DNA from: Balamuthia mandrillaris
Lineage: Eukaryota
Length of the DNA: 64,000 bases
Reading direction: 5' to 3'
Assembly (NCBI GenBank): GCA_031835245.2
Contig: JAVKOQ020000064.1
Coordinates: 124,001 to 188,000 of the forward strand
The notes under the pieces: model-generated
Told to the model about the DNA's origin: nothing
The model's database searches: none
Seen by the model: the letters and a program-made list of their open reading frames with translations, nothing else
Shown: positions 12,369-52,158 of the stretch, piece after piece
Layout: every line of letters starts with the position of its first letter
How positions within the stretch are numbered: position 1 is the first letter of the stretch
Made by a program: the position numbers and the translations under genes

Positions 12369-15300
12369 ATGACAACAAAACCGATTCCACGAAATGCAAA
12401 TCGAGGAAATTATAATAGTAGCAAACAACAACAACAACCCGGAAGCTCCAACAAACGACAGCAAAACAAAGATTTCTCGCAACACCTGGCCTCCGTGCTG
12501 AACAAGGCCGGTCTCGACAGCTCCATCTATGCCGACTACATCCTGGGCATCATGCAAGGCGGACAGGTCCTCTCCTCTGTTGCTGCTTCTTCGGCAGGAG
12601 GGGCAAAGCAAAAACAGAACGACGTCGACGCCAACGAGTTGAGCGAGCTCAAGGGCATCATTGCAGATATTCTCAGGGGTGCCTCCCATCAGGTATTTGT
12701 CTACTCTTTCTTTTGTTTGTTACCTTTTTCTTGTTTAGTTTGCTTTTCCCTTTGTTTTTTCGTTTTCGTTCTTTCCTTTTCGTTTATCTCAATGTTGTTT
12801 TGCCTCTTGCTAATGCTGCTTCACTACTAGGCCAACGAAGACGCCATCACCCGCTTTGTGGACGAGATATTCAACTTTGGAGATGAGACCATCAATCGCA
12901 AAGAACAAGCAACCTTTACCAACAGCAAAAGCGACAAAGCAAAAGAACAACAACCTCAATCCTCCTCCTCCAATTATTCTTCTCCCTCTCCTTCTGCCGC
13001 TAATAATAACGAAGAAAAAGGAGCAACGCAACCAGGCGACGAATGGATCACCGTTGGAGCGAAGAACAAGAACAAGAGACGCGGAAGAAGAAAGAAGGGC
13101 AGACAATTGGGAGAAAACAACTCTTTTGGACTCCAGTGCCGAGGCTGGTGGCCAATAACAGACGAAGTGATGCGCAAAAGCAGCAGCAACAACGATTCAT
13201 CAATGCTGGAGAATGAGAGGCTCAAGTTCTACGAGTTGACGGAAATGGTAAATCAACGACGAAGAGAGAGAAGAGAAGCAATTCTTCGACAACAACAATT
13301 GCAACAACAGCAACAACCAACCAACCACGCTTCCATTCTGCACCATCCTCTTCATCACTTTCAGTTCAGACATTACAACAACACCAGCAATGTGGAAGCA
13401 GCACCGATCATGTTCCAACAACAAGGACCTTTTACTTCGTTCGGCGCTTCTGAACAGGATCAACAAGTTGTTGGTAGTGGTTCTTCGATGATGAAGATGG
13501 CGCTAACGCCTACACCTGCAGTGCAAAGAATTGGAGTTGAAAGAAGCAGAGGGGAGATGTGGTTCGCTCAAGGCTTGTTGGAAAACGGCGACGCCGTCAA
13601 TAACAACGATAACTACAGCTACCTCAACAACGACGCTAGCAACAATTCTGTACTTCCGCCTTTATCTCCAACTCAACAACCATTCAATAGCATCCCCAAC
13701 ATTAACGACGATAGTAGCATTAATCACCCAGAAACGATGGAAAGTAGTTTGGACATGCTCGCTTCAATGTTTTCAGAATATGGATACGACTTGTTGAAGA
13801 ATCTCTACGAAAGTCATGGTCGCGATATGGAGAGAACAGTTGCCGTTCTGTTGAGTTTAGACGATGATAAAACCAACAACAATAACACTAACGGCGATAC
13901 CAACAACAACAAGACGGCGACAACAGCTTCTGCATCATCATCGCCATCTTCAAAATTCGATTCATGGGACACTATTGCAGACATTCCTTCTTCGCAACAA
14001 GACTATAATAACGGGAGAAGCGGCTCTTTCCACTCCTCTCCATCATCTTCTTCATCCTACGACCACCCAAAGGAAGAAAGTTGGGAAGAATCTTCTTCAA
14101 CTTTAGAAAGTTATTACGAAGACCCCAAAAATATCGTCTGTAAATACTTTCTCAAAGGCAAGTGCTACCGAAAGGATTGTTGGTATTCTCATGAGTTGGG
14201 ACAGGTGACGTGTAAGTTTTGGTTGAGCGGACAATGTCTCAAAGGAGAGACTTGTCCTTTCCGTCATTCCTACGATCCTTCTCATCCCTACTTTCGTGAA
14301 AAACTTCAACGTCAACAGCAGCAACAAAATCAAGAGCTAAACTCTTCCTCTTCTGCTTCATTGCCAGCAAGTTTCTCGTCATCTTCTCAACCGATTGCTG
14401 TCGCAAGGACAGCAACCACAACTATGTCTTCCTCTCCTTCTTCTGTTCCTTTCTCGCCTCCAGCCACTTCTCATTATCAAAACGCTTTTTCTTCTCCGTC
14501 TGCGTCTTCTTCATCCTCTCCTTCTCAAGTTGATTCTTTCTTTGCCGCCTTTTCTCCTGGCTACTTCTACTCTCCTGCTTCCTCTCCTCCGACTTCTTCC
14601 CCTTTTCCTTCTCTTTCTTCCTCTTCTACTTCCTCTGCTTCCTCTTCTACTTCTGGGGAATTGTTGACTCTTGCCGCCAAGTTAAAGTTGGAAAAATTGG
14701 AGAAGGAGTACGAACATTCCGGACTGGAGAGAAAAGTGGTTCAGGATATTTACCTGTCGACAGGAGGTTCCTACGATAAGACCACTCGCATCATCTCGGA
14801 GCTCTATCCTTCCGTTCAACGCAAACAACTTCCGGTGGAACGAGCACCGCAACTCTCCATTCGAAAGCCGTCTGCTTCGCCCTCAGCGGAGGGAAGTGGA
14901 GCGGTACCGCAAGATTTGAAGTGGGTCTCCACTGGAGATACTGTCAAGAAACGCTATCTTCTTCTAAGGTATTATTTTCAAGCTTCTTTGTTATATTTGT
15001 TTGTTTGCTTGTTTGTTATTTCCTATTTCTCACTTTTTTTTCTTCCCTTTTTGTTCTTTCTTTCTTCCTTTTTTCTTTTTACAGGGAGGAAGCGATTCAA
15101 CACGCCAAAGCAAGGAACAGGTTCTTTCACGAGGCCACACAAGCCTACTTGAAAGGCGATAAACTTGCCGCAAAAAATCTATCACGAAAAGGTTTGTTTT
15201 CTTTCTTCCTTTCTTTCTCTTGTTCTCCGCTTCTCATTCTCTCTTTTCTGTCTTCACTTTCTGCTCTTCTCCTCATTTATCTTCATTTTTTTGTTAAACA

Positions 15301-15725
15301 AAGGACGAGAACACCACGAACAAATGAAACAACTCAACATGGAAGCCGCCGAGCAGATCTTCCAAGAACGCAACAAGCTCAACGGACCCGGCCGCGAGAA
15401 CATGGTCGACCTTCACGGCCTTCACGTCGAAGAGGCTCTGTACATACTCGAACGTTTCCTGGACCAAAGCTACCTCTACCCCTCTTCCTCTGCTTCCTCC
15501 TCCTCCCCTTCCTTTGAAAACGGAGCCTTTGCTCTCCCGCATGCGCAACAAAGCTTGAGGCCCAAGTTCAGGCACGTGTTCGTGGTGACGGGCACGGGCC
15601 ACCACTCGATGCACCAAAAGGCCAAGATCCTGCCGGCCGTCAAGAACTACCTGCAGGAGAACGGCTACGAGTTTGTGGAAACCTCCAAGGATGGTCGTGG
15701 CGGCTTGTTGAGAGTCACCCTTTAG
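12369..15725 (+). CDS. CUE + tandem CCCH zinc finger + DUF1771/Smr endonuclease protein
   Basis: CUE-like LASMFSEYGYDLLKNLYESHGRDMERTVAVLL. Two CCCH fingers: CKYFLKGKCYRKDCWYSH and CKFWLSGQCLKGETCPFRH. DUF1771-like ARNRFFHEATQAYLKGDKLAAKNLSRKG. Smr motif VDLHGLHVEEAL...VVTGTGHHS. Confidence 0.88.
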
Positions 15726-26300: not shown

Positions 26301-27193
26301 CTTGTTCTTGTTCTTGTTCTTCTTCTTCTTGTTCTTCTTCTTGTTCTTCTTGTTCTTCTTCTTGTTCTTCTTCTTCTTCTTGTTCTTCTTCTTGTTCTTG
26401 TTCTTCTTGTTCTTCTTCTTCTTCTTCTTCTTCTTCTTCTTCTTGTTCTTCTTCTTGTTCTTCTTCTTCTTCTTCTTGTTCTTGTTCTTCTTGTTCTTCT
26501 TCTTCTTGTTCTTCTTGTTCTTCTTCTTGTTCTTCTTCTTCTTCTTCTTCTTCTTCTTCTTCTTTTTCTTCTTGTTCTTGTTCTTGTTCTTCTTGTTCTT
26601 CTTCTTCTTGTTCTTCTTGTTCTTCTTCTTGTTCTTCTTCTTCTTCTTCTTCTTCTTCTTCTTCTTCTTTTTCTTCTTGTTCTTGTTCTTGTTCTTCTTC
26701 TTCTTCTTCTTCTTCTCTATCTTCTTATGTTGTTTGTTTTCCACACGCCATATTAACGCCCCTTTCTTTCTTTCATGCTTCTTCTTCCTCTTCTTTTTCT
26801 TCTCGTTCTTCTTCAGGAAATGTCGTTATTAGTTCCGGTGGTGAAGATGATTCAGCTGGAGAGCGAAAAGTATCGCCAGTTCCTCCGTTTCCCGGAGCTC
26901 GTCAAAATCTTCGTGAACGTTTGCAACCAGTTCATCGACGCCGTCTCCGTCTACAAACAAAAAGGCAGCCCCAGCCCCTCCGACATGCTCAGCGGCCTTG
27001 CCGTCGTTTTGGATAAGGTTTCCGTTCCTTCCTTCTCGTTTCTTTCTTTCTTTCTTGTTAACAGCACAATAACAAACAGGATCCTGATTACATTCGCGCG
27101 TTGGACAAACGCACGGAGCTCATCAACCGGTTGAAGGACCTGTTGGGCGTGCTTCGCAAGATCCTCATCACCGAAAAGGGTCCTATCCTCTGA
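22401..27193 (+). CDS. LD-motif-rich scaffold with C-terminal helical bundles (multi-exon)
   Basis: MEYDELDSILASF, LDSFLSELE, IDSLLAEI, FENLLKELE, LDVLLESLD and VNSLLEGLD. The amphipathic helical C-terminus ends LRKILITEKGPIL* (TGA 27191-27193). Confidence 0.65.
26213..26720. repeat. Intronic (TTC/TTG)n compound microsatellite
   Basis: About 500 bp of ttc/ttg triplets inside GT-AG intron 26178-26816. Confidence 0.95.
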
Positions 27194-27277
27194 ACAAAAA
27201 AAAAGTTTTCTTCCTTTTCTTTCTTTTCTGAGTGCTGCTTGCCGCCAAAAGGGTTCTCCCCCATGAACCTCTTTTTT

Positions 27278-27805
27278 TGAATTCTTGGCAGAAGCTGAAC
27301 CACAGTGCAAGGCAGTGCTGCCAAGGGATTGTTATACACGATGCAGCGGGTGAGAGCGGTGAGCTGGGCGAACTCCCTCGGCAAGGAAGTCAGCTGGTTG
27401 TAGGAGAGGTCGCAGGTGGTAAGAGCGGAGAGCTGTCCAAACTCCCTTGGCAAGGAGCTCAGCTTGTTTACGGAGAGGTCGCAGTAGGTGAGAGCGGAGA
27501 GCTGGCCAAACTCCCTCGGCAAGCAGCTCAGCTGGTTGAAGGAGAGCTTGCAGTCAGTGAGAGCGGTGAGTTGGCCAAACTCTCTTGGCAAGGAGCTGAG
27601 CTGGTTGATGTAGAGGTTGCAGGTGGTAACAGCGGAGAGCTGGCCAAACTCCCTCGGCAAGGAGCTCAGCTTATTGTTGGAGAGGCTGCAGTGGGTGAGA
27701 GCGGAGAGCTGGGCAAACTCCCTCGGCAAGGAGCTCAGCTTATTCATGTAGAGCTTGCAGTCAGTGAGAGCGGAGAGCTGGCCGAAGGCGCTGGGCAAAT
27801 AGGTC
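27278..27805 (-). pseudogene. Inverted LRR-family fragment (6 internal repeats plus the start of the C-cap)
   Basis: YLPSAFGQ, six LSALTxCxLxxNxLSSLPREFGQ repeats, then NNPLAALPCTVVQLLPRIQ. It lacks the N-terminal leader and the BC-box/Zn tail. Confidence 0.85.
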
Positions 27806-28016: not shown

Positions 28017-29889
28017 ATGGAGCCGCAACGAGCAGACAAGAGAGAGGAGGAGGAGGGAAGCAAAACCCTTCCCTCCCTGCTCCAACCCTTTGCACACTCC
28101 ACCGCCTGTGACCTCCGCTTCAAACGTTTGAGCGCCTTGCCCAGTGCCTTCGACCAGCTCACCGCTCTCACTTGCTGCGACCTCTCCTACAACAAGCTGA
28201 GCTCCTTGTCGAGGGAGTTTGGCCTGCTCTCCGCTCTCTCCCGCTGCGACCTCTCCCACAACAAGCTGAGCTCCTTGCCGGGGGAGTTTGGCCTGCTCAC
28301 CGCTCTCACTGATTGCAACCTCTCCAACAACTGCCTGACTTCCTTGCCACAAGAGTTTGGTCAGCTCTCCGCTCTCACCTCTTTCAACCTCTCCGACAAC
28401 AAGCTGAGCTCCTTGCCAAACAAGTTTGGCCAGCTCTCCGCTCTCACCCACTGCGACCTCGGCAACAACAAGCAGCTGACATCCTTGCCAAGGGAGTTTG
28501 GCCTGCTCTCCGCTCTTAGGGAGTGCTATCTCAACCACAACCACAAGCTGAACTCCTTGTCGAGGGAGTTTGGCCAGCTCTCCGCTCTCACCCACTGCGA
28601 CCTCTCCAGCCACTGGCTGACCGCCTTGCCAAGCGAGTTTGGCCAGCTCTCCGCTCTCACCCGCTGCGACCTGTCCTACGGCACTGGTCTAACATCCTTG
28701 CCAAGCGAGTTTGGCCAGCTCACCGCTCTCACCTCTCTCAACCTCTCCCACAACAAGCTGACCTCCTTGCCGAGAGAGTTTGGCCAGCTCTCCGCTCTCC
28801 CACTGCTACCTCGCCTTCAACTATCTACAATCCTTGCCAAGAGAGTTTGGCCAGCTCTCCACTCTTACCCACTGCGACTTCTGCCTCAACAAGCTTACTT
28901 CTTTGCCAAGAGAGTTTGGCCAGCTCTCCGCTCTTACCCACTGCGACCTCTCCTCCAACAAGCTGACTTCCTTGCCGAGGGAATTTGGCCTGCTCACCGC
29001 TCTCTCCCGCTGCTACCTCTCCCATAACAAGCTGACGTCCTTGCCGAGGGAGTTTGGCCAGCTCTCCGCTCTTACCACCTGCCACCTCTACAACAACAAG
29101 CTGACCTGCTTGCCAAGAGAGTTTGGCCAACTCTCCACTCTCACCCTCTGCCACCTCTCCTGGAACAAGCTGAGCTCCTTGCCGAGAGAGTTTGCCCGGC
29201 TGAGCATGCTCACCCGCTGCGACCTGGATGACAATCCCTTGGCAGCACTGCCTTGCACTGTGGTTCAGCTTCTGCCAAGAATTCAAACGCACTCCCCTCA
29301 ACCCTTTCAGCAGCAAGCAGCACTTCTCGCACAACCGCAAGGGAACAACAATAATGAGCAAGAGGAGCAAGCGAAGGAGGAGAAGGAGAAGAACAGAGCG
29401 ACGCCCTCCCAATCACCGTTCATGAGGAAGAACCAGGTCACAGTGAAGAGTTTGTGGCAGTTGAGCGGAGAGACAGTGCTGAGGAACCAGCTTTTGCCCA
29501 CTGGCCTGTTGACCCCTGTTCCAGCCTCTCCCTTCACTTGGCTTTCTTCTTCTTCTTCTTCTTCCCTGCCGGCGGAGAGGAGCACAAACCAGCTGCACGG
29601 AACAAAAGAACGCAATGAAGAAGGAGACAGAAGTGTGGAGAGTGCAGAAGTGGTGCTGCCAGAAGACGTGAGGGAAAGACTGGAAAGGCTTCAGCAAAGG
29701 TGTGATGTTTGTGAACAGCTGTTTTTGGAGGCAGAGGAGGAGGCAGAAGAGGAGGAGGAAGGAAGGGAAGGAAGGGAAGTGGTGAAAAGGTATTGGGATG
29801 AGGAAAGAAGAGTGTGGTGGGAGTTGTTGTGTTGCAGCCAGAACTGCCTCCTCCGACCCCTTCCTGCCTCTTCCCTTGCCATCAAGTAG
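28017..29889 (+). pseudogene. Variable LRR gene copy 1 (~15 internal repeats, BC-box-like + Zn tail), frameshifted at ~28798
   Basis: Overlapping ORFs 28017-29027 and 28780-29889. The sequence is gctctcccactgc where the usual form is gctctctcccactgc (2-nt loss), which may be an assembly error. Confidence 0.85.
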
Positions 29890-29956: not shown

Positions 29957-30001
29957 CATTACATTCGCCATAAACCGACGGCATTCTCCTTACAAGAAGG
30001 G

Positions 30002-30172
30002 ATGGAGACCGTAGCCTCTGTGCCTTCAGACAGGAAGAAGGAGAAGGAAGAGGCGCTTGGCTTTCCTCCTCCGCCTCTTCTTCCACCGCCTGCGACCTCT
30101 CCTCCAATGGCTTGACCGCCTTGCCGAGGGAGTTTAGCCAGCTCACCGCTCTCAATGACTGCAAGCTCGCCT
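30002..30172 (+). pseudogene. 5' remnant of an LRR gene carrying a 25-bp micro-inversion
   Basis: METVASVPSDRKKEKEEA, then the inverted segment, then STACDLSSNGLTALPREFSQLTALNDCKLA. It closely matches the start of copy 3 (32733). Confidence 0.85.
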
Positions 30173-30244
30173 TTCTTTCTTTCATACTTCTTGTTCTTCT
30201 TCTTCTTCTTCTTCTTTCTTCTTTTCCTCCGCTTTCTTCTCCAT

Positions 30245-30643
30245 CTTCTTCAGGAAATGTCATTGTTAGTTCCGGTGGTGAAGATGATTCAGCTGGAGAG
30301 CGAAAAGTATCGCCAGTTCCTCCGTTTCCCGGAGCTCGTCACGATCTTCGTGAACGTTTGCAACCAGTTCATCGACGCCGTCTCCGTCTACAAACAAAAA
30401 GGCAGCCCCAGCCCCTCGGCCTTGCCGTCGTTTTGGATAAGGTATCCATCCTTCGTTTATTTCTTGTCGTTTCTTTCTTGTCGTTTCTTTCTTTCTTTCT
30501 TTCTTGTTAACAGCACAATAACAAATAGGATCCTGACTACATTCGTGCGTTGGGCAAACGCACGGAGCTCATCAACCAGGTTGAAGGACCTGTTGTGCGT
30601 GCTTCGCAAGATCCTCATCACCGAGAAGGGTCCTATCCTCTAA
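30245..30643 (+). pseudogene. Duplicated last two exons of the upstream LD-motif gene
   Basis: Near-identical to ~26807-27195, intron included, but with a 13-nt deletion (cgacatgctcagc). Confidence 0.9.
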
Positions 30644-30727
30644 ACAAAAATCAAAATAAAAAACCCTTTGTTTTGTGTGTTTGTGTTAATTGCTTACAGT
30701 CAAGCTCTCTCTTATTTCGAAGGAGAA

Positions 30728-32596
30728 ATGGCATCGCAACCGGCAGACAAGAAGGAGGAGGAGGAAGAGGAGGAAAGCCAAGCCCTGCCCGCCCTGCTCC
30801 AACCCTTTGCACACTCCACCGCCTGCGACCTCCACAACAACGAGCTGCGCTCCTTGCCGAGGGAGCTTGGCCAACTCTCCGCTCTCACTGCGTGCGACCT
30901 CTCCGACAACGAGCTGACCTCCTTGCCAGGGGAGTTGGGCCAGCTCTCCGCTCTCACTTATTGCGACCTCAGCAACAACAAGCTGACGCTCTTGCCGAGG
31001 GAGTTTGGCCAGCTCTCCGCTCTTACCTCCTGCGTTCTCTGCCATAATCAGCTAAGCTCCTTGCCGGGGGAGTTTGGCCAACTCTCCGCTCTCACTGATT
31101 GCGACCTCTCCAACAACAAGCTTATCTCCCTGCCGAGGGAGTTTGGCCAACTCTCCGCTCTCACCTACTGCGACCTCGCCTACAACCATCTAAAATCCTT
31201 GCCAAGAGAGTTTGGGCAGCTCACTGCTCTCACCCACTGCTACCTCTCCAAAAACGAGCTGTTCTACTTGCCGAGGGAGTTTGGCCTGCTCTCCGCTCTC
31301 ACGGAGTGCGACCTCTCCAAAAACTTGCTGAACTCCTTGCCGGGGGAGTTTGGCCAGCTCTCCGCTCTCACTGATAGCAACCTTTCCAAAAACTGGCTGT
31401 GCTCCTTGCCGAGGGAGTTTGGCCTGCTCTCCGCTCTCTCCCGCTGCGACCTCTCCCGCAACGGTCTGTTGTCCTTGCCGAGAGAATTTGGCCAGCTCAC
31501 CGCTCTCTCCCACTGCGACCTCTCCCACAACCAGCTTCCTTCTTTGCCACAAGGGTTTGGTCAGCTCTCCGCTCTTGCCTCTCTCAACCTGGCTTGCAAC
31601 AAGCTGACTTCCTTGCCAAGAGAATTTGGCCGGCTCTCCGCACTTACCACCTGTAGTCTCCACGATAATCAGTTGAGCTCCTTGCCGAGGGAGTTTGGCC
31701 AGCTCTCCGCTCTCTCCCGCTGCGACCTCTACTACAACAGGCTGAGCTCCTTGCCGAGGGAGTTTGGCCGGCTCTCCGCTCTCACTTACTGCAACCTCTC
31801 CATAAACAAGCTGTGCACCTTGCCGAGAGAGTTTGGACAGCTCTCCGCCCTCACTTACTGCAACCTCTACAACAACCAGCTGGCCTCCTTGCCGAGGGAA
31901 TTCGCCCGGCTGAGCATGCTCACCCTTTGCGACCTGGATGACAATCCCTTGGCAGCCCTGCCTTGCACTGTGGTTCAGCTTCTGCCAAGAATTCAAACGC
32001 ACTCCCCTCAACCCTTTCAGCAGCAAGCAGCACTTCTTGCACAACCACAAGGGAACGGTGATGAGCAAGAGGAGCAAGCGAAGGAGGAGAACAGAGTGAC
32101 GTTCTCCCGATCACCGTCCATGAGGAAGAACCAGGTCACAGTGAAGAGTTTGTGGCAGTTGAGCGGAGAGACAGTGCTGAGGAACCAGCTTTTGCCCACT
32201 GGTCTCTTGACCCCTGTTCCAGCCTCTCCCTTCATTTGGCTTTCTTCTTCTTCTTCCCTGCCGACGGAGGGGAGCACAAACCTGCAACACGGAACAAAAG
32301 AAGAACGTAAAGAAGAAACAGAGAAAGAACAAGAAGGGAGTATGGAGGTCATCATGGTGGTGCTGCCAGAAGACGTGAGGGAAAGCCTGGAAAGGCGTCA
32401 GCGAAGGTGTGATGTTTGTGAACACCTGTTTTTGGAGGCTGAAGCGGCGGAGGAGGAGGAAGCAGGAGGAGAAGGAAGGGAAAGGGCGGTGAGAAGGTGT
32501 TGGGACGAGGAAAGAAGAGTGTGGTGGGAGTTGTTGTGTTGCAGTCAGAGCTGCCTCCTCCGACCCCTTCCTGCCCCTTCCCTTGCCCCCAAGTAG
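30728..32596 (+). CDS. Variable LRR gene copy 2 (15 internal repeats, BC-box-like + Zn tail), intronless
   Basis: MASQPADKKEEE...FAHSTACDL, (LSALTxCxLxxNxLxSLPREFGQ)x15, DDNPLAALPC, VKSLWQLSGETVLRN, LPEDVRESL...CDVC...WWELLCCSQSC. Confidence 0.93.
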   Translation: MASQPADKKEEEEEEESQALPALLQPFAHSTACDLHNNELRSLPRELGQLSALTACDLSDNELTSLPGELGQLSALTYCDLSNNKLTLLPREFGQLSALTSCVLCHNQLSSLPGEFGQLSALTDCDLSNNKLISLPREFGQLSALTYCDLAYNHLKSLPREFGQLTALTHCYLSKNELFYLPREFGLLSALTECDLSKNLLNSLPGEFGQLSALTDSNLSKNWLCSLPREFGLLSALSRCDLSRNGLLSLPREFGQLTALSHCDLSHNQLPSLPQGFGQLSALASLNLACNKLTSLPREFGRLSALTTCSLHDNQLSSLPREFGQLSALSRCDLYYNRLSSLPREFGRLSALTYCNLSINKLCTLPREFGQLSALTYCNLYNNQLASLPREFARLSMLTLCDLDDNPLAALPCTVVQLLPRIQTHSPQPFQQQAALLAQPQGNGDEQEEQAKEENRVTFSRSPSMRKNQVTVKSLWQLSGETVLRNQLLPTGLLTPVPASPFIWLSSSSSLPTEGSTNLQHGTKEERKEETEKEQEGSMEVIMVVLPEDVRESLERRQRRCDVCEHLFLEAEAAEEEEAGGEGRERAVRRCWDEERRVWWELLCCSQSCLLRPLPAPSLAPK

Positions 32597-32732: not shown

Positions 32733-34406
32733 ATGGAGACCGCAGCCTCTGTGCCTTCGGACAAGAAGAAGGAGGAGGAGGAAGAGGCGGAGGAGGAAAG
32801 CCAAGCCCTGCCCTCCCTGCTTCAACCCTTTGCACACTCCACCGCCTGCGACCTCTCCTCCAATGGTTTGAGCTCCTTGCCGAGAGAATTTGGTCGGCTC
32901 ACCGCTCTCACCCGCTGCGACCTCAACGGCAACGAGCTGAGCTGCTTGCCGAGGGAGTTTGGCCAGCTCACCGCTCTCACCGAGTGCTTCCTCCACAACA
33001 ACAAGCTGGCCTCCTTGCCGAGTGAGTTTGGCCTGCTCTCCGCTCTCACAAAGTGCTACCTCGCCAGCAATGATCTAAAATCCTTGCCTTCCGAGTTTGG
33101 CCAGCTCGTCACTCTCAAATATTGCAACCTCCCAAACAACAAGCTGAGGTCCTTGCCACAAGAGTTTGGTCAGCTCTCCGCTCTCGCCTCCCTCAACCTC
33201 TGCAGCAACCAGCTGAGGTCCTTGCCGAGGGAGTTTGGCCGGCTCTCCGCTCTCTCCCACTGCTACCTCTCCAGCAACGAGCTGTTATCCTTGCCGAGAG
33301 AGTTTGGCCAGCTCTCCGCTCTCTCCCACTGCGACCTCTCCAACAACCAGCTTCCTTCTTTGCCACAAGAGTTTGGCCAGCTCTCCGCTCTTATCTCTCT
33401 CAACCTGGCCGGCAACAAGCTGAGCTCCTTGCCAAGAGAATTTGGCCAGCTCTCCGCACTTACCTCCTGCAGTCTCCGCAATAACCAGTTGACTTCCTTG
33501 CCAAGAGAATTTGGCCAGCTCTCCGCTCTCTCCCACTGCAACCTCTCCCATAACGAGCTGAGGTCCTTGCCGCGGGAGTTTGGCCAGCTCTCCGCTCTCA
33601 CTTACTGCTACCTCTCCCACAATAAGCTGAGCTCCTTGCCGCGGGAGTTTGGTCAGCTCTCCGCTCTCACCTCCTGCGACCTCTCCAACAACAAGCTGAG
33701 CTACTTGCCGAGGGAGTTCGCCCAGCTGAGCATGCTCACCCTTTGCGACCTGGATGACAATCCCTTGGCAGCACTGCCTTGCACTGTGGTTCGGTTACTT
33801 CCAGGTATTCAAACGCACTCCCCTCAACCCTTTCAGCAGCAAGCAGCACTTCTCGCACAACCGCAAGGGAACAACGACGATGAGCAAGAGGAGCAAGCAA
33901 AGGAGAAGAACAGAGTGCAATCACCATCCATGAGGAAGAACCAGGTCACAATGAAGAGTTTGTGGCAGTTGAGCGGAGAGGCGGTGCTGAGGAACCAGCT
34001 TTTGCCCACAGGTCTCTTGACCCCTGTTCCAGCCTCGCCCTTCACTTGGCTTTCTTCTTCTTCTCTGCCAGCGGAGGGGAGCACAAACCTGCAGCACGGA
34101 ACAAAAGAAGAACGTAAAGAAGAAAAAGAGAAAGAACACGCAGAAGCAGAAGAAGGGAATATGGAGGTCATCATGGTGGTGCCAGAAGAAGTGAAGGAAA
34201 GACTGGAAAGGTTGCAGAGAAGATGTGACCTTTGTGAACAGCTGTTTTTAGCAGCAGAAGAGGAGGAAGAAGGAGAAGGAAGGGAAGGAATGGCAGTAAT
34301 GCGAAGGTATTGGGATGAGGAAAGAGGAGTGTGGTGGGAGTTGTTGTGTTGCAGTCAGAGCTGCTTCCTCCGGCCCCTTCCTGCCTCTTCCCTTGCCACC
34401 AACTAG
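32733..34406 (+). CDS. Variable LRR gene copy 3 (12 internal repeats, BC-box-like + Zn tail), intronless
   Basis: Same leader, repeat consensus and tail (MKSLWQLSGEAVLRN...CDLC...CCSQSC) as copy 2. Confidence 0.93.
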   Translation: METAASVPSDKKKEEEEEAEEESQALPSLLQPFAHSTACDLSSNGLSSLPREFGRLTALTRCDLNGNELSCLPREFGQLTALTECFLHNNKLASLPSEFGLLSALTKCYLASNDLKSLPSEFGQLVTLKYCNLPNNKLRSLPQEFGQLSALASLNLCSNQLRSLPREFGRLSALSHCYLSSNELLSLPREFGQLSALSHCDLSNNQLPSLPQEFGQLSALISLNLAGNKLSSLPREFGQLSALTSCSLRNNQLTSLPREFGQLSALSHCNLSHNELRSLPREFGQLSALTYCYLSHNKLSSLPREFGQLSALTSCDLSNNKLSYLPREFAQLSMLTLCDLDDNPLAALPCTVVRLLPGIQTHSPQPFQQQAALLAQPQGNNDDEQEEQAKEKNRVQSPSMRKNQVTMKSLWQLSGEAVLRNQLLPTGLLTPVPASPFTWLSSSSLPAEGSTNLQHGTKEERKEEKEKEHAEAEEGNMEVIMVVPEEVKERLERLQRRCDLCEQLFLAAEEEEEGEGREGMAVMRRYWDEERGVWWELLCCSQSCFLRPLPASSLATN

Positions 34407-38815: not shown

Positions 38816-40975
38816 ATGGAGCCACTGGCAGGCAAGGAAGAGGAGGCGGAGGAGGAAAGCCAAGCCCTGCCCGCCCTGCTCCAACCCTTTGCACACTCCA
38901 CCGCCTGCGACCTCTCCTGCAAGGGTTTGACCTTTTTGCCGAGGGAGTTTGGCCAGCTCAAAGCTCTCACCCATTGCGACCTCGTCTGCAACGAGCTGAC
39001 CTCCTTGCCGAGGGAGTTTGGCCAGCTCTCCGCCCTCACCGAGTGCGACCTCTGCAGCAACCACCTTACGTCCTTGCCGAGGGAGTTTGGCCAGCTCAAA
39101 GCTCTCACTAAGTGCATCCTCACCGGGAACAAGCTGAGCCCTTTGCCGAAGGAGTTTGGCCAGCTCTCCGCTCTCGCTGAGTGCCACCTCTCCAGCAACA
39201 AGCTGAGCTCCTTGCCGAGGGAGTTTGGCCAGCTCTCCGCTCTCACTGACTGCGACCTCCACAACAATAAGCTGAGCTGCTTGCCGAGGGAGTTTGGACA
39301 ACTCTCCGCTCTCATCCGCTGCGACCTCTCCCACAACAAGCTGAGGTCCTTGCCGAGGGAGTTTGGCCAACTCTCCGCTCTCTCCAGCTGCAGCCTCTCC
39401 GACAACAAGCTGAGCTCCTTGCCGAGGGAGTTTGGCCTGCTCTCTGCTCTCACCCACTGCGACCTCTACGACAACGAGCTGAGGTCCTTGCCGAGGGAGT
39501 TTGGCCGACTCACCGCTCTCGCCCACTGCGATCTCTACAGCAACAAGCTGAGGTCCTTGCCGCAAGAGTTTGGCCATCTCTCCGCTCTCACTAAGTGCAT
39601 CCTCTACGACAACAAGCTGAGCTGCTTGCCGAGGGAGTTTGGCCAGCTCACCGCTCTCACAAACTGCAACCTCTCCCACAACAAGCTGAGGTCCTTGCCG
39701 AGGGAGTTTGGCCAGCTCTCCGCTCTCACTCAGTGCAACTTCTACAACAACAAGCTGAGGTCCTTGCCGAGGAAGTTTGGCCAGCTCTCTGCTCTCTCCC
39801 GCTGCGACCTCGCAATCAACGAGCTGAGGTCCTTGCCGAGGGAGTTTGGCCTGCTCACCGCTCTCACCCAGTGCGACCTCTCCCACAACAAGCTGGGCTC
39901 CTTGCCGAGGGAGTTTGGCCGACTCACCGCTCTCACCTACTGCGATCTCTACAGCAACCAGCTGACCACCTTGCCGAGGGAGTTTGGCCAGCTCTCCGCT
40001 CTCACCCAGTGCGACCTCTCCCACAACAAGCTGACGTCCTTGCCGAGGGAGTTTGGCCAGCTCTCCGCTCTCACCTACTGCAAGCTCTCCTACAACCAGC
40101 TGAGGTACTTGCCGAGGGAGTTTGGCCTGCTCTCCGCTCTCACCTACTGCTACCTCTCCAACAACGAGCTGAGGTCCTTGCCGAGGGAGTTTGGCCAGCT
40201 CTCCGCTCTTACCCACTGCTACCTCTCCAACAACGAGCTGACCTGCTTGCCGGGGGAGTTTGGTCAGCTCAAAGCTCTCATCCACTACAGCCTGGAGGAG
40301 AACCCCTTGGCAGCACTGCCTTGCTCCATGGTTCGTCTTCTTCCAAAAATGTGCACGCACCGTCCTCCACCGTTTCTCCAGCAAGAAGCACTTCTCGAAC
40401 AAACGGAAGAGAATTACAAAGAGCAAGAGGAAGAGAAGAAGGAGAAGCAAAAGAAAAGAGCGAAGCCCAACCAGTCACCGTCCATGAGGAACAGGCACGC
40501 CACTGTGAAAAGCTTGTGGCACTTGAGCGGGGAGGTGGCGCTGAGGAACAGGTTGTCTGCTGGTCTGTTGAGTTCTGTTCCGGACCTTCCCTTCACTTGG
40601 CTTGTTTCTTCTGGTTTTTCTCTTCCTTCTCCTGCTTCTTCGTTTGCTTCTCTACGGAATGCAGACCAAGAAACGAGAGGAACAAAGGAAGAACAACTAA
40701 AAGAGGAAGAAATCGTGGAAGGTGCAGAAGTGGTGCTGCCAGAAGAAGTGAAGGACAAATTGGAAAGGTTGCAGAGAAGGTGTGATGTTTGTGAGTGTCT
40801 TTTCTTAGAAGCAGAAGCGGAGGAGGAGGAAGAAGAAGGAGACGGAGGAGGGGAAGGAAGGGAAGTGGTGAGAAGGTATTGGGACGAGGAAAGAGGAGTG
40901 TGGTGGGAGTTGTTGTGTTGCAGCCAGCGCTGCTTCCTCCGGCCCCTTGCTGGACGTTCTATTGCCATAAAGTAG
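38816..40975 (+). CDS. Variable LRR gene copy 4 (19 internal repeats, BC-box-like + Zn tail), intronless
   Basis: MEPLAGKEEE...HSTACDL, 19 repeats, EENPLAALPC, VKSLWHLSGEVALRN, LPEEVKDKL...CDVC...CCSQRC. Confidence 0.93.
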   Translation: MEPLAGKEEEAEEESQALPALLQPFAHSTACDLSCKGLTFLPREFGQLKALTHCDLVCNELTSLPREFGQLSALTECDLCSNHLTSLPREFGQLKALTKCILTGNKLSPLPKEFGQLSALAECHLSSNKLSSLPREFGQLSALTDCDLHNNKLSCLPREFGQLSALIRCDLSHNKLRSLPREFGQLSALSSCSLSDNKLSSLPREFGLLSALTHCDLYDNELRSLPREFGRLTALAHCDLYSNKLRSLPQEFGHLSALTKCILYDNKLSCLPREFGQLTALTNCNLSHNKLRSLPREFGQLSALTQCNFYNNKLRSLPRKFGQLSALSRCDLAINELRSLPREFGLLTALTQCDLSHNKLGSLPREFGRLTALTYCDLYSNQLTTLPREFGQLSALTQCDLSHNKLTSLPREFGQLSALTYCKLSYNQLRYLPREFGLLSALTYCYLSNNELRSLPREFGQLSALTHCYLSNNELTCLPGEFGQLKALIHYSLEENPLAALPCSMVRLLPKMCTHRPPPFLQQEALLEQTEENYKEQEEEKKEKQKKRAKPNQSPSMRNRHATVKSLWHLSGEVALRNRLSAGLLSSVPDLPFTWLVSSGFSLPSPASSFASLRNADQETRGTKEEQLKEEEIVEGAEVVLPEEVKDKLERLQRRCDVCECLFLEAEAEEEEEEGDGGGEGREVVRRYWDEERGVWWELLCCSQRCFLRPLAGRSIAIK

Positions 40976-44709: not shown

Positions 44710-45064
44710 TTATATATATTTATCTGATCTTTAACTGCTGTGGAGGTGCGTGTGTGTTGCTTGGAAGAAAAAAAGTAGAAGAACAAGGGACAAGTGGGGG
44801 GGGTAAGCAAGCCGAGAATGGAAGAAGAAGAAGATAAGCGAAGCAGCAACCACAGTTCGCTTTTTTTTTTTTTAGAGCTTCGCTGAAGGGATGCGAATTC
44901 CGAACATGCCAATCTGCATTCCTAACCTGACGGCGAGGCATCGTAACGCCTGGCGACGAAGCGTCCTCTCTCCTCTCCTTCTCTCTCTCTCTTGTCTCGT
45001 TTCGTCGCGGCGATATGTCTACAGCAATAGAGTAGTACAAGCGGCCGAAAAAAAGGAGAGGGGG

Positions 45065-46588
45065 ATGGAAGGGTCCTCTCCTCTTCCTTCGTCCACAGCG
45101 GTCACGCCCAGCGCTGCCACCGCCCAGCAAAGCAGCGGCCATGGGGAGGATGAGAAGAACTCTTGCGGTTGGCCGGTGGAAGAGCTCCTGCCTGCAGAAA
45201 TGCTGTGCCATATCTTGCGCGCACTCCCGAAGGAGAGTGTGGCCCCGGCCTCGAGGACCTGCCGCCGGTGGTATGCTTGCAGCCCTCCAGGCATCAGACA
45301 TAAGCTGTGCATGCGGTGGGCCTGCTCCTCCTTGGCTGCCTTGCAGTGGGTCCGCCTTGATCAGGACTGCCCTCTATCGGCCAACACTTGCGCCTTGGCT
45401 GCTGCGCAGGGCCAGCTGCAAGTGTTGCAATGGGCAAGGGAGCACGGATTCCCTTGGGACGAGAGCACTTGCCACGCGGCCGCAGAGAACGGCCAGCTGG
45501 AAGTGCTGCAATGGGCAAGAGAGAATGGAGCCCCGTGGGACGAAACGACTTGCACCAACGCTGCTGCGGGTGGCCATTTGGAGGTGCTTCAGTGGGCAAG
45601 AGCGAACGGCTGCCGTTGGGACGAAGATACCTGCACACTAGCTGCCTTCAACGGACATCTGAAGGTGCTGAAATGGGCAAGAAAGAACAGGTGTCCCTGG
45701 GACGCACTCACCTGCGCCTACGCTGCCGAGGGAGGCCACTTGGAAGTGTTGCAATGGGCGAGAGCAAATGGCTGCCCTTGGAATGCGGACACTTGTGCTC
45801 AGGCCGCTTGGGGCGGACACGTGGGGGTATTGCTATGGGCCAGGGCAAACGGCTGTCCTTGGGGCGAGTGGACCTGCGCCTTCGCTGCTGAACGTGGCCA
45901 TTTGTGGTTGCTGAAATGGGCGAGGGAGCAAGGCTGCCCTTGGGGCGAGCAATATTCTGACCGGCAGAAAGAGGCGTTCGCCAGGGGAATGGAAAACGGA
46001 TGTCTTTGGAGCGAGCGCTTCCTCGACGTCGACATAGACCTTGACCTCTTGCACCGGTACCCGCTGAAGGTTCTCCAAACGTACTGCACGGATGAGGAGC
46101 TTGCGGTGCGAGGCCAATTCAAAAAAAGGCACTTCATCAGGGCCATTTTGAAGTACAACGGCATCTCTGATGCATCGGAGGAGGAAGAACCAGGAGAAGA
46201 AGAAGAAGAAGAAAGGGACGAAGAAGGAGGTGAGGATGAATATGAATACGAATATGAAGATACAGATGAAGATGAAGATGAGGATGAGAAGGAAGATGCA
46301 GATGATGAAGCTGAAGATGAAGATGAAATGAGAAGGAAGATGAGGAAGCTGGAGATGGAGATGATGAAGCTGAAGCTGAAGATGAAAATGAGAAGGAAGA
46401 TGAGGATGAATATGAAGAGGCGGAAGAGGAAGTAGACTTTTATAATGTCCCCTGGTTGGAAGCTGGTACCAGTGAAGTTGTTACGAGAATACTGCCTCAC
46501 GGAACGACTCTCGGTGCCCACAAACGCCACAAGAGCTGACTTGATCCAAGCCATCCGAGGCAGCCGGAGACAGCAAAGACAGCAATGA
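45065..46588 (+). CDS. F-box + giant-virus-type ankyrin repeats + acidic tract and SAP/HeH-like motifs; intronless; ORF stop at 46435 with a disrupted 3' end
   Basis: F-box LPAEMLCHILRAL...SRTCRRW. About 6-7 repeats of WDExTCxxAAxxGHLEVLQWARxNGCP. The D/E tract shifts frame at ~46326. Confidence 0.8.
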
Positions 46589-48473: not shown

Positions 48474-51400
48474 TGGAACGTCCCACCCCACAACGCTGCA
48501 AAGTCCCACCACCCTCGGTAAACGTCCCCACCCTCAGGTAATTTACCCACCCTAATATGTATTTACAATAACCCATTATTTTGTGCTATTTGCCACCAAA
48601 GCGTGTACAATATTATTTAGAGAGGCGGAGAAAAGGATCAGAAAAACCCGGCACTATTTCTTTTGTGCTTTTTTTTCGTTTTGTTCTTTTGGCCAGTCTT
48701 TTCTTTGTCACGCTGGGCACCTTTTCTTCGTTCTGTTCTTTTTTTGAGGAGAGAGGAGCTTCACGACCTGTGTTTTCTGGTACCGTGGGTTGGGCTTCAG
48801 TTGTCGTTTTGGAGAGAGAGGCTTCCTTTTGTCCACTCGGGGATCCTGGTAGTTCACCACGGGTGCGACGCCATAGATCTCTTCCGTTTTACAGTTCTTT
48901 TGCCATTGAGAGGTACGCTTTGCTTTGCACTCTTCAAAAATGACAAACATCAACTTCAGAAAAAGAATCTGCTTGATACAAAAAGTGACAAACATACCAC
49001 TTTGCGTTTTTGTTTTTTGATTTTGTTGTTTTTTTGGTGCAGCCGCCGCCACCGCCGCTGCCTTTTTCTTTGTTGTTTCAGGTTTTGTTAATTTTGATTG
49101 AAAGGTACGTTCGGTTTCTGGTGTTTGTGTGAGGTGTTAGCTAAAAGTAGGAAAGGAGGGAGAGATTTTGTTTAAAAAAAAGAGATACTAACTTAATTCA
49201 AGCAAACATTCTTCTGTGAGTCGCAGGTTGGTTGCTACTTTCGGCCGCTTTGTTGTATTGCGCGGCCTCCCAGGTGATGACTTCCCTGTAGCATATGCGA
49301 TTGCTTGTTCTGCTTCTTCCTTGCTAGAGTACTCGATTTTTGGCTCCACTGGATGTTGATGCTTTGTTCCTTGATTTTTGTTTGCATTCAGTTTGTCTTT
49401 CTCCTTTTCCTTCTCCTCCTCCTTCTCCTCCTTCTCCTCCTTCTCTTCTTTCTTATTGTTGTGTTCTTCTCCTTCAGAAGTTTCTTCCTCAAGATCTCCG
49501 CCGTCGTCCTCACCAAGTTCATCCATCGATGGCTCCTCCAACAGTAGCAGCGCCTGCTGTTCCTCGGCCTGTTCATCTCCCTCCTCTCCTTCCACATCTT
49601 CATCATCAAGGGTAACAGGCGCTACACGTTGCTCCAGGGAGTCAGTATCATCTGCTTCAACGATGTCATCTTCAACTATTCTTGCCACTTGTGAGGTGCT
49701 GCTGTTGGTGCGTCTTGTTTGTCTTTTCAGCCCAAGCTCTAAAAGGTTCTGATCTGAAAATGTTTTCTGTAGATGAGCAGCAAGTCCAAAAACGTGTTTG
49801 CACCTCCTACCATAATACCGAAAGTAAGGACAGGGGCATGAAGGCAATTCTATAGTCACGTCGTACTCATTCCATTTGAAAACGCCGTCAGCAAGCTCTA
49901 CAAAATGTGCGTTCAATCCTTCTTCTACCTCTTTTTCCTCTCTGTCGTTGTTGTTGTCATCGTTTTTGCTGCCATTCTCTATTTCTTCTTTTTCTTTCTG
50001 TTTCTCACTCTGTTGGTGCTGTGCCAGCCGCAATCCCTCTTGATATCTCCTCCAAAGCCGGCAAACACCAAGGCTTGGGCGTTGCGGTAGTACATCGATG
50101 CGGTTGAGCTCCACATTGTAGCGGCGAAACACATTGTCTGCTAGCGTTAAGACCAAGTTGTGATCCCCTTTGGTGCCTTTGCAGTGGAAATCACGAAGAA
50201 TGCTACGAAAGATCGTCTCTGTTGCATTGTTGGTATTCCACAAGCCCTCTCGGTACCCAGGACGATCAATGCTTTTCCACGTTGATGCCCATGGAGGAGA
50301 AAGCCAGTTCTTGTCAAAGTACTGCCAAAAACGGGTAATCCTCTTTTTTTGGCAATAGTTCTTCAACACTTTTGTTGCTTCTTCCTCTGCATCTTCTGTC
50401 ATGGCATGTTGCAGTCTTTTTAACAAACCCAATACACTTCCATCATCCTTCCCTTGTTGTTTGGTATTATTGTTAGTTTCTACTTGTATGAGCAACAACG
50501 AGAGGGAGAGAGCAGATGCATGAAAGAGAGAGAACAAACCATACTGCGCAACTTTTTTTCTCCACAGTTGTTGTGCATGAAAGTCACACAACCCCACCTG
50601 AAAGCCAGCACTTGTCGCCCCGTTACGCTCCACCTTGTCTTTGTCGATCATTACGAAGGGTTGCCACGTAGGTTTTGGGGAGTAGATCGTTGTCGTCTGT
50701 GTCTCAAAAAAGTGACGAACAGACGAAAGGAAAAAGCGCACAACTGCTGCTCGTTCCTTGCTAGCAACAGCGAAGGCAACAGGCCAGCTCCGTCCCAAGT
50801 CATCTTGCACCACCAGTGCCCAAACGGGGGGATGTGACTTGGATAGCTTGTAGATGCTGTCCAGGCCGACTACATCCTTACCCCATCGCTGAAGCACAGT
50901 GACTGCATAAGGCGCGATCAGAAAAATCATCCATGGCCGACGGGCCGCCGTGCGATCAAGGATGTACGTTTCACGGCTCTCCAAAGGTGGGAAAAGGATA
51001 GTAGAAGCCAGTTCTGGCCGATTCAAGGCCTCTTGGAGGGCTTCTGCTCTGGTTTGCCCTTTCTTGCCGATTCGCAGTTTTTTCCTTCCGTTGTGGATTA
51101 CAGTGGCAATCTCCTGCACAGTGGGTACATCCCGAGCATCCTTGCCCAGCTCACAAGCGCCCCCCAGCAACATTCGTTGCAGCTCGTGCGCCGTCATTGC
51201 TCCTCCTCTCCCATTCATTCCGTCTTCTTTTGTTCCTTGCCCATCCATCTGGCGGAGCCACTGCCGAAGCGCAGGTGTCATAGGCAAAGCGGAAGGCGCG
51301 CAAACCCCAGGTCCGTGGCTTTGGGCTTCCTTCTGGATGTAGATGTAGGCAGTGTTTAGCTCATCTCTAAACACCACCCAACGGCTTTGTACTTCACAGT

Positions 51401-52158
51401 CCTTTAGTTTTTTGTTCTTCTTTCCTCTTGCAGGAGGAGCACAGGCAAAGCCGCCAGAGCAGTGAAGATTCTCGCTGAGTGCAACCTCAAGGACCCCATT
51501 CTTCACCTTCTTGACTTTAGGCGCCACCAACACTTTCACTCCTTCAAGGGTGGGCCGCGGATTACTAAGCACCTTCACTCCTGTTCGCTTTGTAAGCCCA
51601 CGAGTTGATCTCCATTGGACTCGATAAAAGGTCGGAGCATCCTCTCCACCATTGTACAACCGTGAAAGCTGCTGCAATGGAACCTTTCGTTCAAAAATCC
51701 ACCCGTAAATCTCGGCAAATCTTTTTTTCTTCGCTTCCATAATGAGAAAAAAAAAAAGGAAAAAACAAAAAGCCAAACAAACAAAAAAGGTGTGGGATGG
51801 TTGTGTGTAGCTGTTTCTAGTTGAAAGAAAAAAGTTAAAGAAGAAGACCTTGTTACAACCCAAGAAAAAGTAACGGTAACGTTATTGAAAAAAAAAGGCG
51901 GGAACAAAAAGAAAAGTATGGCGGGCAAGAATGGTGAGAGGAATACCCGTTGACCAAGGATACAGCATGCTTTCAATTCCTGACAGTTTCTTTTACAACG
52001 GTTATTCCTCTCGCCAAGCAAAGAGAAACACAGTAGCAATGTAACGATAGAGTTACTCATAATTCATGTCACCCTAATAGGTTGGGACTTTTACCTGAGG
52101 GGTGGAATTTTTATCGGTGGGGTGGGAAGTTTATGGTCGTGGGGTGGGATATCTACCA
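48474..52158 (-). mobile_element. Mutator-like (MULE) DNA transposon with imperfect ~85-bp TIRs
   Basis: The left end tcccaccccac...tcccacc...ccctcaggtaa matches the reverse complement of the right end ttacctgagggg...ggtggga...gtggggtggga. It encloses a MULE transposase. No clean TSD was found. Confidence 0.8.
49188..51740 (-). CDS. MULE DDE transposase with SWIM zinc finger
   Basis: D1 VGLDSIYK...DDLGRSWPVAF, D2 VMIDKD, CDFH (CxxH), E in TNNATE, SWIM CPCPYFRYYGRRCKH. A probable in-frame intron lies at ~50455-50540. The C-terminus has an AT-hook-like PGRPR. Confidence 0.88.
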   Translation of the reverse strand: MEAKKKRFAEIYGWIFERKVPLQQLSRLYNGGEDAPTFYRVQWRSTRGLTKRTGVKVLSNPRPTLEGVKVLVAPKVKKVKNGVLEVALSENLHCSGGFACAPPARGKKNKKLKDCEVQSRWVVFRDELNTAYIYIQKEAQSHGPGVCAPSALPMTPALRQWLRQMDGQGTKEDGMNGRGGAMTAHELQRMLLGGACELGKDARDVPTVQEIATVIHNGRKKLRIGKKGQTRAEALQEALNRPELASTILFPPLESRETYILDRTAARRPWMIFLIAPYAVTVLQRWGKDVVGLDSIYKLSKSHPPVWALVVQDDLGRSWPVAFAVASKERAAVVRFFLSSVRHFFETQTTTIYSPKPTWQPFVMIDKDKVERNGATSAGFQVGLCDFHAQQLWRKKVAQYGLFSLFHASALSLSLLLIQVETNNNTKQQGKDDGSVLGLLKRLQHAMTEDAEEEATKVLKNYCQKKRITRFWQYFDKNWLSPPWASTWKSIDRPGYREGLWNTNNATETIFRSILRDFHCKGTKGDHNLVLTLADNVFRRYNVELNRIDVLPQRPSLGVCRLWRRYQEGLRLAQHQQSEKQKEKEEIENGSKNDDNNNDREEKEVEEGLNAHFVELADGVFKWNEYDVTIELPSCPCPYFRYYGRRCKHVFGLAAHLQKTFSDQNLLELGLKRQTRRTNSSTSQVARIVEDDIVEADDTDSLEQRVAPVTLDDEDVEGEEGDEQAEEQQALLLLEEPSMDELGEDDGGDLEEETSEGEEHNNKKEEKEEKEEKEEEKEKEKDKLNANKNQGTKHQHPVEPKIEYSSKEEAEQAIAYATGKSSPGRPRNTTKRPKVATNLRLTEECLLELS

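Follow-up and report, generated by a model that had tools for sequence, protein, structure and literature searches.

A diversified leucine-rich repeat gene family of Balamuthia mandrillaris with a predicted Elongin C-docking tail

The LRR gene array and its variable face

The window analysed here is a stretch of 64 kb with the character of intron-bearing eukaryotic DNA from Balamuthia mandrillaris, a brain-infecting amoeba. Its interval from 27.2 to 41.0 kb contains four leucine-rich repeat (LRR) genes of the same family, together with two fragments, one of them inverted and the other a decayed 5' part. Copy 2 (30728..32596, + strand) is a 622-aa ORF that codes for about 17 LRRs, each of 23 aa, between an acidic N-terminus and a cap, and for a conserved tail. 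Copy 3 (32733..34406, +; 557 aa, about 14 LRRs) and copy 4 (38816..40975, +; 719 aa, about 20 LRRs) are in the same orientation, as is copy 1 (28017..29889, +), which follows the same plan and whose frame is broken near 28795, where one LRR unit within a CT run measures 67 nt and not 69 nt. Copy 1 is either a pseudogene or the product of an assembly error, and the frames of the other three of the four copies are open over 557 to 719 aa. The inverted fragment (27180..27800, -) belongs to the same LRR family and consists of 7-8 units and a cap, with no tail, and the decayed fragment (29995..30180, +) is the 5' part of another copy. The nucleotide identity among the four copies is 78-84%, which marks them as recent paralogues, and a tail shared by the four was therefore counted as one observation.

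Several other features of the window were recorded. A 410-nt piece of unrelated coding sequence is present twice between the LRR copies (26791-27200 and 30233-30650, 88% identity), and the inverted LRR fragment adjoins one of the two; this arrangement suggests that the array has undergone segmental duplication and inversion. An open frame with weak matches to a MULE transposase and a SWIM finger (49188-51863, -) lies 8 kb from the array. Two F-box genes are found at 44891-46435 and 55566-56672, one of them with ankyrin-type repeats, and a gene at 12858-15725 has matches to CUE and CCCH zinc-finger domains and a C-terminal part that appears Smr-like by eye.

The LRR solenoid of copy 2 (30824..31957, +) is built of the unit LPREFGQLSALTxCxLxxNxLxx, in which the x positions of the beta-strand face are variable, and this part of the protein was modelled confidently by AF2. 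Substitution ratios were calculated from pairwise comparisons that are not independent and that ignore relatedness and gene conversion. Read in that way, the LRR framework was nearly fixed among the 53 parsed 23-residue units (pN/pS 0.09), as against a pN/pS of 1.28 at the six x positions of the strand in the same 53 units. Five of these six positions gave 1.63 (bootstrap 1.22-2.35) over 50 units, the five-site set having been picked after the entropies were known and three capping units having been left out. Of 46 face 5-mers from the units of copies 2-4, 44 were distinct, and together these values suggest that the LRR face is under diversifying selection. Position 22 of the unit, outside the strand, is likewise hypervariable, and a ladder of cysteines occupies the second strand position in 48 of the 53 units, e.g. 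between 30992 and 31957.

RNA reads of the family were found in three runs of one study (60, 44 and 5 reads, with about 3-5% of each run read); these low counts include reads in both directions and mix the paralogues. The family reads map onto copy 2, span both the LRRs and the tail and end after 32637. No splice joint in the tail was present among the RNA-read alignments.

Motifs of the conserved tail

All motifs that the original prediction had described in the tails of the four copies were found at their positions. The tail of copy 2 contains the sequence SLWQLSGETV (32147..32176, +), which matches the BC-box consensus (S,T,P)LXXX(C,S,A)XXX-phi, with Ser at the C/S/A position, and which is predicted to form an Elongin C-binding helix; it is followed 62 residues further on by LPEDVRESL (32363..32389, +), a match to the Cul2-box consensus phi-PXX-phi-XXX-phi (both consensus sequences as given in the accessible part of PMC4878042). 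The two boxes are located at 29449-29478 and 29656-29682 in copy 1, at 33957-33986 and 34179-34205 in copy 3 and at 40511-40540 and 40736-40762 in copy 4, all on the + strand. The BC-box consensus is exact in three of the four copies, copy 4 having Ala at the last position, and the Cul2-box consensus is present downstream of the BC box in all four, at a box-to-box spacing of 64-70 residues.

The stretch between the boxes of copy 2 (32177..32362, +) consists of a conserved short segment, LRNQLLPTGLLTPVP, and of a Ser/Glu-rich insert of variable length that was modelled with a pLDDT below 50 and is likely disordered. This low-complexity insert, which comprises 59-65 residues in the four copies, and the frameshift of copy 1 are additions to the original prediction. 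The annotated relative P0005 is without most of the insert, which may have been deleted in it or treated as an intron by the gene model.

Beyond the Cul2-type box the tail carries two cysteine pairs. The first Cys follows the box after 7 residues in every copy and belongs to the pair CDVC (32408..32419, +), whose C97 and C100 are invariant in all 11 aligned sequences, as are F104 and L105. A beta-hairpin, VRRCWD-EERR-VWWELL (32489..32536, +), was predicted by AF2 with a pLDDT of about 50, and its residues W128, D129, W135, W136, E137 and L138 are invariant in the 11 aligned tails. It precedes the second pair, CSQSC (32540..32554, +), with C141 and C145 invariant in 11 of 11 sequences; C140, just ahead of this pair, is Val in P0011. 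Both pairs are likely zinc ligands. With AF2 run on 13-sequence alignments, helices were placed at both boxes and the hairpin before the last Cys pair, the tail as a whole having a pLDDT of about 50 or lower. The motif blocks of the tail showed a pN/pS of 0.37-0.44, compared to 0.58 for the insert, and by these pairwise ratios are under purifying selection.

P0011, a divergent relative of 143 aa (34% identity, E 8e-7), has the sequence SLVWQCASKL, a canonical BC box of the Cys type, and retains LPENVEELV, CEVC and CGSHC and thus all four cysteines. Since it carries the textbook Cys form, the Ser-type box of the window copies appears to be a drifted BC box and no accident. A second Cul2-box match lies 16 residues from the BC box of P0011. 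In the window copies, additional matches to phi-PXX-phi-XXX-phi occur once in the LRR cap and once directly after the BC box, and the Cul2-box motif is therefore a cheap one. The latter match, LPTGLLTPV, was considered as the cullin box and rejected: it fits the consensus, but the distal LPEDVRESL is the one used in the complex model described below and the one at a constant distance from the Cys pair, and was preferred for these reasons.

The chance expectation of the motifs was estimated from 20,000 shuffles of the post-LRR region of each of the four copies. A BC box alone was present in a fraction of 0.16-0.22 of the shuffles and a Cul2 box alone in 0.18-0.23, so that either box on its own, occurring in about 0.2 of shuffles, is weak evidence. 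Both boxes in order were found in 0.009-0.016, and the full pattern of BC box, Cul2 box, CxxC and CxxxC, with spacing windows set after the sequence was known, in none of the 20,000. Among the 126 stop-to-stop frames of at least 150 aa in the window, the full pattern was found in copies 1-3 only, and two unrelated frames contained both boxes by chance.

Relatives of the tail, Elongin C and the modelled complex

The closest relatives of the tail were at least ten annotated B. mandrillaris proteins, whole or partial, a number which counts cluster representatives and is hence a lower bound. When all 1.84 billion representatives were searched with HMMER, 11 matches were obtained, namely nine named Balamuthia proteins, P0011 and one repeat artefact, and no LRRC58-like name was among these 11. 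A profile of ten tail sequences found nothing beyond Balamuthia proteins and P0011 among 7990 best-word candidates scored, the tail profiles of 4 and 10 sequences being shallow. P0010 was rejected as a relative, its match being false and driven by repeats. No true relative of the tail was obtained from contigs of viruses, metagenomes or prokaryotes; the sole match in a genome contig, L083, was riddled with stops and was discarded.

With Pfam, no SOCS, VHL or F-box match was obtained in the LRR genes at E values up to 10, and F-box matches were obtained in two other genes of the window in the same search. The Pfam matches of the tail to RHH_5 and MCM3_WHD were below threshold and were not retained, nor were those to proteasome beta and eS8 sequences of the PDB, also below threshold. 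The PDB sequence search gave no credible match of the tail to a BC-box protein, and no LRRC58 chain was among the PDB matches listed. The original prediction had looked to Foldseek for a likeness of the tail to BC-box proteins; against PDB and BFVD the LRRs alone were matched, because AF2 left the tail at low confidence, and the PDB, Pfam and HMMER searches likewise yielded no BC-box protein. When the last LRR was combined with the tail in an ESM feature search, the top clusters were those of LRRC28 (0.91), LRRC69 and LRRC58, with scores of 0.91-0.87 and Mucoromycota included, a ranking that is to be taken as a lead only; the tail of P0001 used alone gave no usable match. No publication on this LRR family or on amoeba BC-box LRR proteins was found in a literature search of open-access papers and preprint texts.

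A scan with a short motif detected, on a metagenome contig filed as giant virus, an Elongin C that matches human Elongin C at 2e-47, and through it homologues from metagenomes and protists were reached. This Elongin C is of animal type, is extended at the N-terminus by a short repeated stretch and is encoded by an intronless, AT-rich gene (L001:139-639); a second contig filed in this way (L002:435-923) codes for a protein that appears Skp1-like by eye. Four sequencing runs with the same species label as the window were aligned at 80% likeness to the protist locus L061. Positions 836-886 of this locus were covered by 15 and 31 RNA reads in two of the runs and by one contig in each of the two others, and Elongin C sequence was thus present in all four same-label runs, from three studies. 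The covered segment encodes EISTPILEKVIQYFYYK, and the same frame is kept in both loose ends, which read as further Elongin C sequence, EQALGEINFR before it and LRYTNSTSEI after it (hand translation). As judged from these 37 residues in all, the same-label runs encode an Elongin C of protist type; the reads are unlike the human sequence and their source is therefore not a mammalian feeder cell. An Elongin C profile search gave no Balamuthia name among the 120 matches listed of 1297. Elongin C was present in all organisms of a 17-genome survey, according to the accessible part of PMC1257465, and words for Elongin B or cullins were absent from one supplement file each of PMC8569187 and PMC10471605, files that are not full annotations.

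The tail of copy 2 (32120-32593) was folded with P0033 and zinc, independently of the alignments of this analysis. P0033 served as stand-in Elongin C and is identical by eye to the sequence of the same-label runs at 34 of the 37 residues. The ipSAE values were 0.82, 0.81 and 0.82, compared to 0.00, 0.00 and 0.00 for the controls, which were of kinds other than Skp1 or a mutated box. In the calibration, 51 of 78 solved complexes attained the mark set for this score, as did 2 of 108 mismatched pairs (39 of 65 and 2 of 126 for eukaryotes); the calibration pairs were ligand-free, unlike the zinc-containing job. Contacts agreed between runs to at least 82%, and the pLDDT of the partner was at least 55. 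Confident contacts were made by tail residues 6-25, which account for most of the interface, and by residues 83, 85, 86, 89 and 143, with a core formed by Leu11, Trp12, Ser15, Gly16, Thr18 and Val19 to which the distant box adds Pro83, Asp85, Val86 and Ser89. In the model, both boxes, about 60 residues apart in the sequence, come together on Elongin C while the insert forms a loop outside, and the Elongin C side of the interface consists of its C-terminal helices, the known BC-box groove. Many complexes of BC boxes with Elongin C have been solved, and the passing score of the model may reflect likeness to them or memory of them. We consider it quite probable that the tail binds Elongin C. Of what the original prediction had proposed, the docking on Elongin C was upheld in the model, where the tail uses its BC helix together with the cullin box (score 0.82, best control 0.00), and the presence of Elongin C in the organism was seen in all four same-label runs.

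Interpretation and comparison with known systems

The products of the LRR genes probably serve as substrate receptors in a ubiquitin ligase built on Elongin C and a cullin. Target selection would fall to the LRR solenoid of the receptor, and its conserved tail would plug into Elongin C, with the BC helix predicted to lie in the Elongin C groove, Leu11 being central, and the cullin-box helix predicted to fold back beside it while the insert is looped out. As in LRRC58, a single zinc bound by the four cysteines may fasten the hairpin onto the cullin box, and the tail would most likely consist of a VHL-type box split in two and a hairpin clamped by zinc. A cullin and a RING subunit would then join, the cullin being most likely an amoebozoan paralogue of the Cul1 clade rather than a true Cul2 or Cul5, and the proteins bound by the LRRs would be ubiquitinated and subsequently degraded. 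The original prediction had called the proteins Cul2/Cul5 substrate receptors, of which the Elongin C docking stands as predicted by the model; the naming of the cullins was too specific, as Cul2 and Cul5 are called animal-specific in the accessible parts of PMC2785787 and PMC12816148, and a true Cul2 or Cul5 as the partner is unlikely.

It is also conceivable that the tail binds Elongin C without an active ligase, the split box recruiting no cullin and the interaction being that of a folding or stabilising partner, a decoy or a competitor. The insert of 59-65 residues that splits the boxes would fit, the complex model covers Elongin C alone, and a Cul2/Cul5 orthologue is not expected outside animals: cullin-evolution reviews, in the parts accessible, describe the Cul2/Cul5-Elongin ligases as an animal invention with a possible parallel in yeast (PMC2785787, PMC12816148). 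However, the Cul2-type box is kept in all four window copies and in P0011, is separated from the first Cys by 7 residues in every copy and comes to lie on the surface of Elongin C in the model. Moreover, a yeast Elc1-Cul3 ligase is reported in the accessible part of PMC2785787, and that of PMC9108976 lists the Dictyostelium cullins CulA, CulB and CulE, all closest to CUL1, CulB and CulE being extra Cul1-like cullins; on balance we regard binding without ligase activity as improbable.

That each box is found in about one fifth of the shuffles, that extra Cul2-box matches lie nearby and that the tail has no homology to named proteins would be expected if the tail were a lineage-specific zinc-binding C-terminal cap or interaction domain, with boxes that are chance look-alikes on amphipathic helices. 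The ordered pattern was nevertheless absent from all 20,000 shuffles, the divergent P0011 has the canonical Cys-type box, the model scored 0.82 against 0.00 with boxes 60 residues apart meeting on Elongin C, and the same order of elements is described for LRRC58 in the accessible text of PMC13156300, which makes mere look-alikes quite improbable. The array might finally be a repeat family that amplifies selfishly and is in decay, descended from an adaptor that once worked and with most copies no longer functional, as could be read from the frameshift of copy 1, the inverted and truncated fragments, the several partial relatives among annotated proteins and the low read counts. Three of the four copies are open over 557-719 aa, though, the pN/pS is 0.09 in the LRR framework and about 0.4 in the tail blocks, and transcripts reach the tail; we give this reading very little credence.

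If the LRR genes do encode substrate receptors, the family would have diversified by tandem duplication, changes in repeat number and selection on the binding face, and the copies would be interchangeable target-pickers for a degradation machine described mainly in animals and yeast. Their targets would likely be fast-changing, for example proteins of intracellular bacteria or giant viruses, although this is speculative. Defence adaptors would be expected to pair a constant docking tail with LRRs of a fast-changing face, and this layout would make the family a candidate for cell-autonomous immunity in a phagocytic amoeba. We propose, as a doubtful extension, that an LRRC58-type adaptor has been turned into a dispersed, positively selected intracellular repertoire that feeds foreign (endosymbiont or giant-virus) proteins to a non-animal Elongin C-cullin ligase. 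Were it true, VHL-type-box Elongin C-cullin ligases would be older than animal Cul2/Cul5, in conflict with what has been published, and their role in amoebae would be in cell-autonomous immunity. With a VHL-type-box family in an amoeba, the cullin used by Elongin C outside animals becomes testable, and a box split by about 60 inserted residues would broaden the motif definition behind BC-box scans.

The known system closest in plan is LRRC58, described in the accessible parts of PMC13156300 and bioRxiv 10.1101/2025.09.23.678073 as a CRL2/CRL5 substrate receptor for CDO1 (PDB 9T7V). LRRC58 has the same order of elements as the amoeba family: its LRRs are followed by a BC box, a CUL2-type box and a two-stranded sheet that binds zinc at one end (PMC13156300), to which the predicted hairpin and putative zinc ligands of the amoeba tail would correspond. 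A small residue, A267, replaces Cys in its BC box where the amoeba copies have Ser. It differs in having nine LRRs, compared to 14-20, and in a spacing of the boxes of 15 residues (A267 to L282; bioRxiv 10.1101/2025.09.23.678073), compared to 64-70 in the amoeba copies, a fourfold difference. The amoeba hairpin sits where LRRC58 has the two-stranded sheet and the C-cap (PMC13156300), and a comparison by position, without alignment, shows nothing in the WDEERR loop that corresponds to the C-cap residues F318, C319 and Y322, which take part in the binding of CDO1 and in cysteine control. LRRC58 is, moreover, a single conserved metabolic receptor, whereas the amoeba genes form a multi-copy family with variable faces. 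The original prediction of an LRRC58-like E3 adaptor therefore holds for the order of the elements and fails for a profile or structure match, none being detected to any named BC-box protein, LRRC58 included: the tail appears LRRC58-like in plan and is not assigned to the LRRC58 family here.

LRRC28 and LRRC69, whose tails carry CxxC ... CSxxC, head the ESM clusters for LRR plus tail, a signal that is gone with the tail alone. The VHL-box receptors of CRL2 (VHL, LRR-1, FEM-1 and PRAME) have both consensus motifs in the same order as the amoeba genes, according to the accessible part of PMC4878042. Compared to them, the amoeba tail has a long insert between the boxes and an added, putative zinc module, and its host is an amoebozoan. 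SOCS-box (Cul5) receptors have a Cul5 box of the LPxP type, whereas the amoeba box reads LPE(D/E)V and has no Pfam SOCS match, and the amoeba LRR genes differ from F-box/LRR receptors in lacking an F-box match. Nematodes and plants have fast-evolving families of F-box and BTB adaptors, in which a constant docking module goes together with a variable substrate face and with tandem birth and death. The amoeba family shares these traits with them, but its Elongin C box is C-terminal whereas their F-box or BTB domain is N-terminal. Overall, we regard the feature as real, a diversified family of amoebozoan LRR genes whose shared tail is predicted to dock on Elongin C.
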